A stretch of 9,032 bases of DNA from a virus (IMGVR_UViG_2529293040_000001); one strand, 5' to 3'. Positions 1 through 9,032 are shown, counted from the first letter of the stretch. The notes: generated by a model not told the origin, from the sequence alone. Numbers and translations are program-made.

Positions 1-2316
<2,316 letters not shown>

Positions 2317-2324
2317 TCACCCTC

Positions 2325-2615
<291 letters not shown>

Positions 2616-2629
2616 TCACCACCTGATTA

Positions 2630-4234
<1,605 letters not shown>

Positions 4235-4246
4235 AAACTCATTTCA

Positions 4247-4417
4247 TCACCAGTAAAAACTAAATGGTTTTACAATTCGACGGAAATCCTGATCGGCTTT
4301 TTCAAGAATAACTGAAACAACATATTCTTCAATGGTTGTATTTTTATTGTAAATAATTCTTTCTATCTGCTCGATAGTGTATTCTGGCAATTTAACTTTA
4401 AATTCTTGAGTAGACAT
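4247..4417 (-). CDS. Hypothetical small hydrophilic protein (56 aa), AT-rich
   Basis: ATG at 4417 preceded by a GAGG Shine-Dalgarno. Translation: MSTQEFKVKLPEYTIEQIERIIYNKNTTIEEYVVSVILEKADQDFRRIVKPFSFYW. The TGA stop at 4249-4247 lies 13 nt before the pIII start. It is below the 60-aa cutoff of the supplied ORF track and I have no similarity evidence for it. Confidence 0.35.
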   Translation of the reverse strand: MSTQEFKVKLPEYTIEQIERIIYNKNTTIEEYVVSVILEKADQDFRRIVKPFSFYW

Positions 4418-4509
4418 AAAACCTCACAAATTAGATTTAAAGCCAATGACGCAACATAACCCACAAAGGGAACCAAACATCATAAAAATAAAATCAAACA
4501 TAAATATCC

Positions 4510-4535
4510 AAAAAAAGGGCGGAATATCCGCCCTT
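4510..4535 (-). terminator. Rho-independent terminator downstream of the major coat gene
   Basis: On the minus strand, a GC stem (GGGCGG / CCGCCC, extendable to 9 bp) with a short loop is followed by a T7 run, 17 nt after the pVIII stop. Ff phages have a terminator at the same place after gVIII. Confidence 0.6.
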
Positions 4536-4551
4536 CCTCATAAAAAACAAC

Positions 4552-4800
4552 TCAGATACTTCTGATGGCTCCCCATACTTTACGAACGCCAGCAAAAGTC
4601 AGATAAACTGTAACTCCTGCAACACCGATAGAAAGAATAACAGCAGAAACAGAAGACATATCAATACTGTTAGTCAATGATGAAAAATCGACTGTACCAG
4701 CAAAAGACGGAGATACAGCAAGAGCAGAAGCAGCGGAAAAAGATAAAGCTGCAACTTTCTTATCAACACCCTTAAAAAAATTGGTCATTTTTGCAAACAT
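4552..4800 (-). CDS. Major coat protein (pVIII-like) precursor
   Basis: A strong AAGGAGA Shine-Dalgarno lies 7 nt before the ATG at 4800. The product has a signal peptide (MFAKMTNFFKGVDKKVAALSFSAASALAVSPSFA) followed by a roughly 48-aa mature segment with an acidic N-terminus, a hydrophobic core (VSAVILSIGVAGVTVYLTFAG) and a basic C-terminus (VRKVWGAIRSI). The supplied ORF begins at an upstream ATG (4827) that lacks a ribosome-binding site. Confidence 0.75.
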   Translation of the reverse strand: MFAKMTNFFKGVDKKVAALSFSAASALAVSPSFAGTVDFSSLTNSIDMSSVSAVILSIGVAGVTVYLTFAGVRKVWGAIRSI

Positions 4801-4840
4801 AATTAAAGTCTCCTTATTAAACTCCAAATTGTGGAAATAA

Positions 4841-4975
4841 TCATGCCAAGAAAAAACAAAATACTGGCAGTGAAAATCCCGTTAAAAACGCCGAGGAATA
4901 AATCCCCGACACATCAGGTATCCCCACGCAAATAGCATTAATTTGCGTGGAAACTGAATCCGAATTAACAGACAT
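4841..4975 (-). CDS. Hypothetical 44-aa protein with a hydrophobic C-terminal half (possible pVII/pIX-type minor coat protein)
   Basis: ATG at 4975, 4 nt after the pV-like stop codon. Translation: MSVNSDSVSTQINAICVGIPDVSGIYSSAFLTGFSLPVFCFFLA. It sits between the ssDNA-binding gene and pVIII, where gVII/gIX lie in Ff. The ribosome-binding site is weak and the call rests on position and hydrophobicity. Confidence 0.35.
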   Translation of the reverse strand: MSVNSDSVSTQINAICVGIPDVSGIYSSAFLTGFSLPVFCFFLA

Positions 4976-4979
4976 AAAA

Positions 4980-7356
<2,377 letters not shown>

Positions 7357-7407
7357 TAAAGGAATGTAGAGTCCCGACAGGATTAACAACATCAGCTCAG
7401 AAAAACC

Positions 7408-7548
7408 ATGCACGACATGATTCTGGATTTACTAATGAAATACCTGATTGCCGGTAGTCTGTTCGGCATGTTTTTGTTCAGCGTCATAACAATAGTGTTG
7501 CCAATCGTCCTGAGGGCACACAATAAAATCAACAGAAGCAACGACTGA
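7408..7548 (+). CDS. Hypothetical 46-aa single-pass membrane peptide
   Basis: ATG-initiated ORF MHDMILDLLMKYLIAGSLFGMFLFSVITIVLPIVLRAHNKINRSND with a roughly 22-residue hydrophobic core and a charged tail. It ends 10 nt before the dif-like hairpin. There is no clear Shine-Dalgarno, so it may not be coding. Confidence 0.3.
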   Translation: MHDMILDLLMKYLIAGSLFGMFLFSVITIVLPIVLRAHNKINRSND

Positions 7549-7557
7549 ATACACAAC

Positions 7558-7651
7558 AGTGCGCACAATGGCGTTATGTATAAAAAGGCCGCTGCGGTGG
7601 AAAGTATCGCAGCGGCCTTTTCAACATAACGCGTGTCACATTATGCGCACC
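7558..7651. other. dif-like XerC/XerD site pair in inverted orientation around a hairpin (candidate attP-derived prophage/chromosome junction)
   Basis: Minus strand 7651-7619 reads GGTGCGCATAA-TGTGACACGCG-TTATGTTGAAAA. The first 14 nt equal E. coli dif (GGTGCGCATAATGT). Plus strand 7558-7584 reads AGTGCGCACAA-TGGCG-TTATGTATAAA. Between them is a perfect 10-bp stem GGCCGCTGCG / CGCAGCGGCC (7587-7617) with an 11-nt loop. Confidence 0.6.
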
Positions 7652-7730
7652 AACATAAACCAAGGGAGAATCCAGTCGTTGGCGGTTCATGGATTGTTCT
7701 GCTCATTAACAACGACCAAAACCCCATATC

Positions 7731-9032
7731 TTACTTAATACCGTATTCTCGGCTTAACCGACCGTGCAACCTCAACACATTGGTTTCAACTGCCGTCACC
7801 ACGTTCTCCGGAAAATCTGTCGGTAATGAAGTCTTCACGTTATCCAGTGCTGCCGGAATCATTCTGGCAAAGTCACTCAGGATTTCATGCATCTGCACTT
7901 CCGGGAATTTCAGCACCTTTGCTGTCGCCAGAAAATGTCGCGGATAAATTTTATCGATTGCCGTTTTTTTGCCTTTGGATGCGTTAAGCCCCATTGCCAG
8001 TTTGAGATCGCTGATGTGTATTCCCGTACCGCCAAGGACCGGAAATGCCGAAATGATGTCATAAAATGGTGTGAGCCGATAACTGCCGCCAGCCTGAATA
8101 AATACGGAGAAGTTTTTTGCATGGCCATCCGTTGCGCCAATCAACCACTGGAAGACCTGAAACTTCATAAAATCATAGCGATCTTTCAGCGCCTCGCTGG
8201 AGCCCATCAAAAAAGCCATAATTTGCGCGATACCGGGGCCTCCATCTGATTCATATTTCACCGATGAAGGTAAACCGAATGTCTGGCACATATCCTCCTG
8301 TGGCAAGCGAAGTAAAACCGTTCGCTCAGTATTCCAACGCCTGTCAAAACGTTCGACCGCTAACGCGCGCACCCTTCCCGCTTTAATGATTTCTGCGTCC
8401 GGAACATTCAACCCGAGTTCTTTCGCCAGCAGCAAACAGTAATACTCATTATCAACGCTTTGGCTAAGATCGAGCGTCGCATTGGGCTGTCTGATTTCGC
8501 CAATCGGCAATTTGATAATGTGCGTCGTTGGCGTTATTCCCTTCGGAATGCACCAGTCATTGCCTATTCTGAGCAGCGCAGTCTTCTCCTGTGCGCCAGC
8601 AACCGAGATGCGAAAGTCATTTTCTTCTCTAATCATGCCTAACGGGATATCTGCTTTATAAGCCGTTAATACTTCTTCAAGTCTGGCTTCAGTAAGCTTT
8701 TCCCATGCCATTATCGGACACGTTACGGTTTCATCTTCGGGGATTAACGTCACGGCACCAACGCTGTCTCGCCCTATTTCTGACAATAAATCAAACGGTT
8801 GTCTGGATTTAGCATGATAACGTTTAACGATCCGGTCACGTACAATCGGGCTATCGGGTAACAGGTTATCGAAGAAGTTAAATACGGCATCAGAGGTGAT
8901 ATTCCCCCTCTGCAATGGCAGCGAAAGTGACAACGGTCTGGCATAACGGCTGGCTAACCACTCAGGTGCATACTTAAAGGTGTGCGCGCCGTTGGCTAAC
9001 TTCGTTAACTCGCCTACCCGCTGGTTGTTCAT
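7731..9032 (-). CDS. hipA: HipA serine/threonine kinase toxin of the HipBA toxin-antitoxin system (N-terminus cut by the window edge)
   Basis: The 433-aa translation (MNNQRVGELTKLANGAHTFKYAPEWLASRYARPLSLSLPLQRGNITSDAVFNFF...LRLHGRLSREYGIK) matches E. coli HipA as I remember it almost along its whole length. The window ends inside the gene, so the first few codons and hipB lie beyond 9032. Confidence 0.93.
   Translation of the reverse strand: MNNQRVGELTKLANGAHTFKYAPEWLASRYARPLSLSLPLQRGNITSDAVFNFFDNLLPDSPIVRDRIVKRYHAKSRQPFDLLSEIGRDSVGAVTLIPEDETVTCPIMAWEKLTEARLEEVLTAYKADIPLGMIREENDFRISVAGAQEKTALLRIGNDWCIPKGITPTTHIIKLPIGEIRQPNATLDLSQSVDNEYYCLLLAKELGLNVPDAEIIKAGRVRALAVERFDRRWNTERTVLLRLPQEDMCQTFGLPSSVKYESDGGPGIAQIMAFLMGSSEALKDRYDFMKFQVFQWLIGATDGHAKNFSVFIQAGGSYRLTPFYDIISAFPVLGGTGIHISDLKLAMGLNASKGKKTAIDKIYPRHFLATAKVLKFPEVQMHEILSDFARMIPAALDNVKTSLPTDFPENVVTAVETNVLRLHGRLSREYGIK

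Follow-up and report, generated by a model that had tools for sequence, protein, structure and literature searches.

Among the filamentous phages that exploit the host XerC and XerD recombinases, a closely comparable system is that of CTXphi. In this phage a hairpin is the integration substrate, catalysis by XerC is sufficient, and the product consists of one functional dif and non-functional sites (PMC3089051; PMC3442271). The two dif-like sites of CTXphi have spacers of 12 and 7 nt (PMC3089051, Table II), and the equivalent duplex sites have been reported to be non-functional (PMC3089051). A CTXphi prophage array is ordered as attP1 (12-nt spacer, + strand), ~97 nt, attP2 (7-nt spacer, inverted), rstR (reverse), rstA ... 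zot and dif1.

In enterobacteria, Ypfphi and CUS-1phi have already been classed as CTX-type (PMC4246890 table; PMC3089051; PMC3442271; PMC4266046). A different arrangement is found in the VGJphi and TLCphi types, with a single duplex attP of near-canonical spacing and a reversible integration; VGJ recombination is XerC-first (PMC4246890, PMC6744903), while that of TLC is XerD-first and involves an activation factor (PMC4246890, PMC6744903).

Here, a 9,032-nt stretch of viral DNA (IMGVR_UViG_2529293040_000001), referred to as the window, is compared with these systems. Positions 7558-7651 are the hipA-proximal junction of a 7.9-kb filamentous prophage at dif, the chromosome dimer resolution site. 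This prophage, devoid of an integrase, has very probably joined dif as single-stranded DNA apparently folded into a dif mimic, in a CTXphi-like reaction catalysed by XerC and resolved by replication. The novelty lies in an undescribed phage, a new backbone with a variant hairpin, since the mechanism and a CTX-like hairpin in E. coli phages have already been published. No paper on an E. coli inovirus of the RstA type was found in the library searched.

A prophage junction at dif

Matches to the stretch 7300-7800 exist in 3,599 of 5,426 complete E. coli genomes. A coverage of at least 80% is reached in just 8 of them, and among the matches listed nearly all start at position 7638. In the O18:K1 strain PMV-1, which carries no prophage at dif, the intact dif is followed by the same flank towards hipA. 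Because dif is intact in this prophage-free strain and the genome matches start at 7638, 7558-7637 is not native chromosome. The comparison bears out the expectation that dif lies next to hipA and that chromosomal sequence runs up to its XerC side, with phage sequence from there on; PMV-1 has intact dif, and not the 7558-7651 sequence, at this position. Relative to the intact dif of the prophage-free strain (GGTGCGCATAATGTATATTATGTTAAAT), the exact match spans 14 nt (GGTGCGCATAATGT, 7638-7651), in agreement with the proposal that the arm nearest to hipA is an exact XerC arm plus 3 nt of the central region. After the TGT, the window departs from dif.

Megablast of the prophage against the phage collection gave no match, and its relatives were recognized at the protein level only, the best relatives of the replication protein (Rep) being CTXphi RstA (33% identity, 92% of the length, E 2e-50). 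Pfam and PHROGs detected no integrase or recombinase domain among the window ORFs, and no integrase is annotated, at either end, in the complete 7.9-kb unit of related genomes, a unit whose immediate boundaries are dif and a chromosomal LysR gene. The original prediction of a prophage without an integrase is therefore upheld, and an integrase with its own att site at the other end, which would have spoken against it, is missing from the related complete units.

Relative to the copy in strain E700025, two 1-nt deletions, at ~1555 and ~2002, break the zot/pI gene into two ORFs, and 13 gap openings separate the window from that copy over 7.7 kb. The frameshifts reflect either a defective prophage copy or assembly indel errors; this copy may therefore be defective, which has no bearing on how it integrated.

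Two further features of the prophage body were observed. An ATG-initiated ORF of 46 codons on the plus strand (7408-7548), encoding the strongly hydrophobic peptide MHDMILDLLMKYLIAGSLFGMFLFSVITIVLPIVLRAHNKINRSND, stops 10 nt short of the hairpin. Neither Pfam nor PHROGs gives a match for it, and it is unannotated in related RefSeq genomes; relatives have plus-strand accessory genes at its position. The pIII-like gene contains an internal repeat in an 18-nt register at 3037-3202 (self-matches offset by 18 nt), resembling the variable linker of g3p in UPphi phages (PMC7307601), and the length of its product varies by strain (534 aa here, 543 aa in E700025 and 561 aa in AST217).

Table 1. Features of the window, and junction sequences of the related tandem prophage in strain E700025
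Feature	Position	Strand	Sequence	Basis or remark
Filamentous (inovirus) prophage body, ~297 nt missing at left	1-7637	-		Pfam, PHROGs; unit length from E700025
Secretin	1-1260	-		Pfam/PHROGs
Zot/pI, two fragments	1439-2313	-		Pfam/PHROGs
DUF2523	2325-2612	-		Pfam/PHROGs
pIII-like	2630-4234	-		Pfam/PHROGs
Small coat-like ORFs	4247-4975	-		Prophage body
111-aa ORF	4980-5315	-		Prophage body
RstA-like Rep_trans replication protein	5325-6551	-		Pfam/PHROGs
Small divergent regulatory-region ORFs	6521-7548			Prophage body
XerC-like arm, attP2-like site	7558-7568	+	AGTGCGCACAA	9/11 to dif
Short spacer, attP2-like site	7569-7573	+	TGGCG	5 nt; pattern search
XerD-like arm, inverted attP2-like site	7574-7584	+	TTATGTATAAA	Imperfect pairing with 7619-7629 in the fold
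Inner GC stem-loop	7587-7617	.	GGCCGCTGCG, 11-nt loop, CGCAGCGGCC	Perfect 10-bp stem, halves 7587-7596 and 7608-7617
XerD-like arm, attP1-like site	7619-7629	-	TTATGTTGAAA	9/11 to dif XerD arm
Long spacer, attP1-like site	7630-7640	-	TGTGACACGCG	11 nt; 7638-7640 (TGT) also belong to the dif central region
XerC arm of chromosomal dif, kept at the hipA-proximal junction	7641-7651	-	GGTGCGCATAA	Identical to intact dif, PMV-1
Native chromosome: 79-nt spacer, then hipA (7731-9032, cut by the window end)	7652-9032	-		E. coli genome matches
E700025 hipA-side junction			...TTATGTTG / GTGCGCATAATGT / GACACGCG...	Right flank also as GACACGCGTTATGTTGAAA...
E700025 phage-phage junction (intact phage site)			...CTGATAAC / AGTGCGCATAATGT / GACACGCG...	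Left flank also as CCTGATAAC
E700025 distal junction			...CTGATAAC / AGTGCGCATAATGT / ATATTATGTTAAAT then chromosome	Left flank also as CCTGATAAC

The minus strand of 7558-7651 reads GGTGCGCATAA TGTGACACGCG TTATGTTGAAA A GGCCGCTGCG ATACTTTCCAC CGCAGCGGCC TT TTTATACATAA CGCCA TTGTGCGCACT, so that the first dif-like site (GGTGCGCATAA / TGTGACACGCG / TTATGTTGAAA) is followed by the 10-bp GC stem-loop and then by TTTATACATAA / CGCCA / TTGTGCGCACT. On the plus strand, the latter reads AGTGCGCACAA-TGGCG-TTATGTATAAA, a second dif-like site inverted with respect to the first. Every element of the proposed arrangement, two inverted dif-like pairs around a perfect 10-bp GC stem, was recovered (Table 1), with the 11-nt and 5-nt spacers and the XerD-like arm beyond the longer one matched by pattern search; the 34 nt between the attP1-like and attP2-like sites hold a single GC stem-loop. 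Two occurrences of the pattern GTGCGCAYAA-N5-11-TTATGT, one per strand, were found in the window, and none in any of 200 shuffles. A whole dif pattern, allowing up to 3 mismatches, is absent from the window because the regenerated dif lies to its left. No match was obtained with Rfam at the gathering threshold.

The crossover point was located in strain E700025, where the same phage (99.4% identity) forms a tandem dimer of 7,934-nt units (Table 1). Position 1 of the XerC arm is A in the phage and G in the chromosome; the exchange therefore falls within the 13 nt that both share, XerC arm plus TGT, and the junction sequences place the crossover inside GTGCGCATAATGT, on the XerC side of dif. The far end of the prophage carries a near-perfect regenerated dif (AGTGCGCATAATGTATATTATGTTAAAT) whose one change is the phage A at position 1 of the XerC arm, and the same distal dif is found in strain AST217. 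A second junction with a regenerated dif had been anticipated; it was read in these 98-99% identical relatives, E700025 and AST217, the window's own distal end lying beyond the window. Furthermore, viral contigs contain heterologous tandem junctions (e.g., L078) in which the flank and A-type arm of one phage are joined to the hairpin of another at the same place, which fits later integrations into a regenerated dif.

A separate observation concerns strain TO73, which harbours a tandem inovirus with minus-strand junctions at 2888, 12092 and 21091 of L007. The same sequence lies upstream of the XerC arm at all three, and it corresponds to the chromosomal hipA-side dif flank (ACTGGATTCTTCCTTGGTTTAT...) over at least 20 nt per junction, and over ~45 nt where two hipA-side junctions were compared. 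The phage genome therefore seems to have taken up host DNA beside the attachment site.

The predicted fold of the site and its conservation

The original prediction held that the single strand would fold with imperfectly paired arms and a bulge formed by the unequal spacers, as in CTXphi attP(+), and the in silico fold of the minus strand at 7550-7660 has this form. Its energy is -38.1 kcal/mol, in comparison with -14.8 ± 2.6 for shuffles (z -8.9; 0 of 200 as good). The XerC-like arms pair together, as do the XerD-like arms, and within the long spacer TGACAC forms a 6-nt bulge while TG and GCG are paired. The short strand of the folded central region measures 5 nt, compared with 6 in dif and 7 in CTXphi. 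For the intact phage form, read at the phage-phage junction in the tandem dimer, the energy is -43.9 kcal/mol (z -10.1), and flanking AAC/GTT pairs extend its outer stem. The inner GC stem-loop probably nucleates the fold.

With the same tool, CTXphi attP(+) gives -52.2 kcal/mol (z -8.4) and the same predicted topology, in which the XerC arms form a duplex, 5 nt bulge out of the long-spacer strand, a few pairs form in the centre, and the duplex of the XerD arms is followed by an inner structure. CTXphi and the window phage each have a pair of inverted dif-like sites whose spacers are non-canonical and of unequal length, 12/7 and 11/5, respectively. In both, the site with the long spacer reads in the XerC-cleaved sense on the coding (+) strand, the identity of the central region to dif is limited to TGT on the XerC side, and a bulge is predicted on the long-spacer strand. 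Also shared are the location of the site, which precedes a divergent regulator and a Rep of the RstA type, the regeneration of dif past the last morphogenesis gene, the tandem arrays and the lack of an integrase, and the order of sites and genes in CTXphi is that of the minus strand of the window.

However, several differences separate the two systems. The arms match E. coli dif here and V. cholerae dif1 in CTXphi, whose sites are ~97 nt apart with a branched structure between them, in contrast with 34 nt and one GC stem-loop here, and the short spacer has 7 nt in CTXphi and 5 nt in this phage. The window phage has its own secretin and no toxin genes, and its Rep is just 33% identical to RstA. 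Finally, ssDNA integration is an experimental finding in CTXphi, whereas the window phage is known from its sequence and predicted fold.

To survey the architecture more broadly, IMG/VR was scanned with the pattern GCGCATAATGT-N6-10-TTATGTT (XerC arm, TGT, 6-10 nt and TTATGTT), which returned 88 contigs, mostly of inovirus size (4-15 kb). An inverted XerD'-spacer-XerC' partner, scored with tolerance for wobble pairs, occurs within 200 nt downstream in 53 of the 57 unique sites with full flanks, at distances of 29-115 nt, and upstream in 4. Among the 53 sites, (11,5) is the commonest spacer pair (22 sites), followed by (10,6) with 9, (13,7) with 8, (12,6) with 6, (11,6) with 4 and (10,5) with 3. 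One contig group has the short GGCCGCTGCG hairpin seen here, and other groups have unrelated inner structures of 70-115 nt. Inverted dif-like sites whose longer spacer has 10-13 nt and whose shorter spacer has 5-7 nt are the rule in dozens of inovirus-sized contigs in which the XerC arm is of the E. coli type.

In 18 enterobacterial hairpins, the arms (including TTATGTTGAAA), TGT and CG are invariant and the GC stem is nearly so, while the 6 bulge positions, the loop and the outer flanks vary. Pairing is maintained in 94% of cells, in comparison with 28-51% when the partner is slid. Compensatory changes occur in the flanks and at position 1 of the XerC arm (G-C to A-T), the latter being G-C in 12 hairpins, A-T in 4, G-T in 2 and mismatched in 0. 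This covariation is support rather than statistical proof, because the sequences are related and some are junctions with the chromosome or with heterologous phages.

Proposed route of integration and alternatives

The route that best accommodates these data would start from a phage genome with two inverted dif-like sites, of 11-nt and 5-nt spacers, neither of them workable as a duplex. The two sites would anneal to each other within the coding-sense single strand that is packaged, giving a hairpin with one XerC-arm duplex, one XerD-arm duplex, a short, partly paired centre and, on the strand of the long spacer, a bulge of 6 nt. This dif mimic would be bound by the XerC and XerD of the host, and XerC would exchange one strand with dif at the border between the XerC arm and the central region, cleaving the folded (+) strand after ...GCGCATAA, with the common TGT stabilising the exchange. 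Replication would then turn the intermediate into a prophage. The predicted products are a working dif at the far end and, on the hipA side, a dead hybrid site made of the chromosomal XerC arm and the whole phage hairpin region, now duplex, so that excision by Xer recombination would not take place. The RstA-like protein would presumably drive rolling-circle replication across tandem copies and thereby generate new phage genomes.

We infer that the single strand is the substrate from the non-canonical spacers, the lack of a canonical site, the conserved and co-varying partner and the CTXphi experiments. We likewise infer that XerC alone catalyses the exchange, that replication resolves the intermediate and that phage is made from tandem arrays. 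Junction sequences alone read the same for ssDNA and dsDNA substrates. The proposal of a CTXphi-style XerCD integration of ssDNA is thus sustained by the junction, the crossover and the fold, although the part that concerns the nature of the substrate does not follow from the junctions alone. More generally, ssDNA integration in enterobacterial phages has so far been deduced from sequence.

Identical junctions would also be produced if the duplex replicative form integrated as VGJphi does, using just the attP1-like site, with XerC exchanging one pair of strands between duplex attP and dif, replication resolving the intermediate and no need for the attP2-like site; a homology to dif confined to the XerC side (TGT) is likewise a property of VGJ-type sites (PMC4246890). 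This route is quite improbable, since the only dif-like sites have 11-bp and 5-bp spacers instead of the 6 bp of dif, with canonical spacing found nowhere, and since it leaves unexplained a partner without a role that nevertheless co-varies and lies 29-115 nt downstream in 53 of 57 sites. Moreover, it would call on duplex sites whose CTXphi equivalents have been reported as non-functional (PMC3089051).

The GC stem-loop could, instead, be chiefly a bidirectional intrinsic terminator or a packaging signal, closing off the region of the accessory genes and insulating the phage from hipA read-through, the dif-like arms being a recombination scar. T-runs come after the 10-bp GC stem on both strands (TTTTT on the minus strand, TTTT on the plus strand), the plus-strand accessory genes of relatives end just before the stem-loop, and non-phage IS modules have the same stem-loop behind their cargo genes. 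However, two complete arm pairs with inverted symmetry and conserved unequal spacers are left without explanation, and in other phage groups the same architecture surrounds unrelated inner sequences, which makes this a highly improbable main function. A terminator scan did not call the stem-loop, because its 11-nt loop exceeds the 8-nt limit of the scan. Given the T-run after the stem on the minus strand, the stem-loop may also act as a terminator, a second role that is compatible with the attachment site. In Ff phages, a packaging hairpin lies after gene IV. Few packaging signals are known for filamentous phages that integrate (bioRxiv 10.1101/2023.12.30.573655); GGCCGCTGCG does not fit the Xanthomonas consensus GGX(A/-)CCG(C/T)G, and packaging is a minor possible second role of the stem-loop.

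Finally, native chromosome, or a prophage inserted at another att site by its own tyrosine or serine integrase, can practically be discarded, given the intact dif at this position in the prophage-free strain, the 8 of 5,426 genomes that cover at least 80% of 7300-7800, and a complete unit bounded by dif and the LysR gene in which there is no integrase and no recombinase by Pfam or PHROGs.

Related phages, hairpin relics and significance

The comparison with Ypfphi and CUS-1phi draws on reviews and on the sequence from Y. pestis. When species-representative genomes were scanned, the hairpin pattern was detected in Yersinia pestis, among others, where the site reads GGTGCGCATAA TGTACGACTCG TTATGTTGAAA A GGCCGCTGCG ... 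CGCAGCGGCC T CTTTAGCATAA CGTCA TTGTGCGAACC. The Y. pestis locus is 99% identical to the prophage of E. coli AHB2 (L003) outside an accessory-gene segment, which matches the published description of YpfPhi against CUS-1 (PMC4266046). This identity places the AHB2 prophage in the CUS-1/Ypf lineage.

YpfPhi (Yersinia pestis) and CUS-1phi (E. coli O18:K1:H7) share with the window phage the host family, the target and the tandem arrays, the CUS-1phi target in E. coli being the dif next to hipA. The hairpin is homologous, with an identical XerC arm, TGT, XerD arm (TTATGTTGAAA) and GC stem (GGCCGCTGCG) and with 11/5 spacers, whereas the loop, the bulge sequence and the attP2-like arms differ. At the nucleotide level, the window phage and this lineage match in the hairpin and the neighbouring chromosomal flank only. 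Amino-acid identity is 38-45% for secretin, Zot and DUF2523, and no match was obtained for Rep, which is of the II/X family in YpfPhi and CUS-1phi and an RstA-like Rep_trans here. Membership of their lineage, with its ~99% core identity and II/X-type replication module, was rejected.

UPphi phages (IKe-like, Enterobacterales) also form E. coli dif prophages in tandem repeats, with reverse accessory genes near the dif-proximal end (PMC7307601), but differ in their gene II-type Rep and IKe-like morphogenesis module (PMC7307601). The paper describing them refers only to 'a copy of the dif site', with repeats matching over ~15 nt, and mentions neither a hairpin nor attP (PMC7307601). The VGJphi/TLCphi-type IMEXs (integrative mobile elements exploiting Xer) resemble the window phage in using XerCD at dif without an integrase; a single duplex attP of the VGJphi type was also considered and rejected, the combinations of XerC arm and XerD arm having spacers of 5 and 11 only.

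A third E. coli inovirus lineage, encoding a 'replication endonuclease' (L059 type), has a hairpin 98% identical. The hairpin is nearly unchanged in at least three inovirus lineages with unrelated Reps (RstA-like, II/X-type and 'replication endonuclease'). In the E. coli genomes H156, H157 and H159, the L059-type lineage has up to 35 separate matching places per chromosome, and 35 places in one chromosome suggest long tandem arrays or many scattered fragments.

Relics of the hairpin occur outside phages as well. With 7540-7637 as the query, sequences ~81% identical to 7559-7628 were found in 929 of 5,426 E. coli genomes, and hairpin-like matches were found at 482 places on plasmids, including pAPEC-O1-ColBM and ColV/ColBM-type plasmids. 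The relic consists of the attP2-like site, the stem-loop and the XerD arm, without the outer XerC arm; examples are L005 7325-10130, L004 3286-6125, L141 and L142. In four of five relic loci examined, an 'ISNCY' transposase gene is alongside; in these four, no phage is present and the hairpin follows a cargo gene (SIR2, AbiJ_NTD4 plus DUF7014, or a TIR protein). In L004 and L005, transposase, cargo and hairpin are contained in a ~2.8-kb unit with ~55-nt inverted repeats (TGT...ACA). A distance of 5 bp separates this unit from a XerC arm, either that of dif or that of a dif-like site on a plasmid, and there is an AACAT duplication. These units fit the IS1202-family 'dif hunters' of PMC10132070. 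That the enterobacterial attP hairpin is a portable integration cassette, relics in IS1202-family elements with anti-phage cargo included, is a tentative and rather unlikely extension. If the relic still binds Xer or folds, attachment sites and dif-targeting transposons would together constitute an unrecognised route moving defence genes to dif-like sites.

The window phage represents a second, undescribed lineage of E. coli filamentous phages with a CTXphi-style folded site, having an RstA-type Rep, its own secretin and clean evidence from three junctions. The ends of such prophages are missed by prophage finders because the prophages are small, lack an integrase and are bounded by just 13 nt of identity. 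As integration takes place at dif, any effect on chromosome dimer resolution would be relevant to the host. E. coli XerCD, together with this 110-nt hairpin, would be well suited as a native system in which to examine the model of ssDNA integration outside Vibrio.
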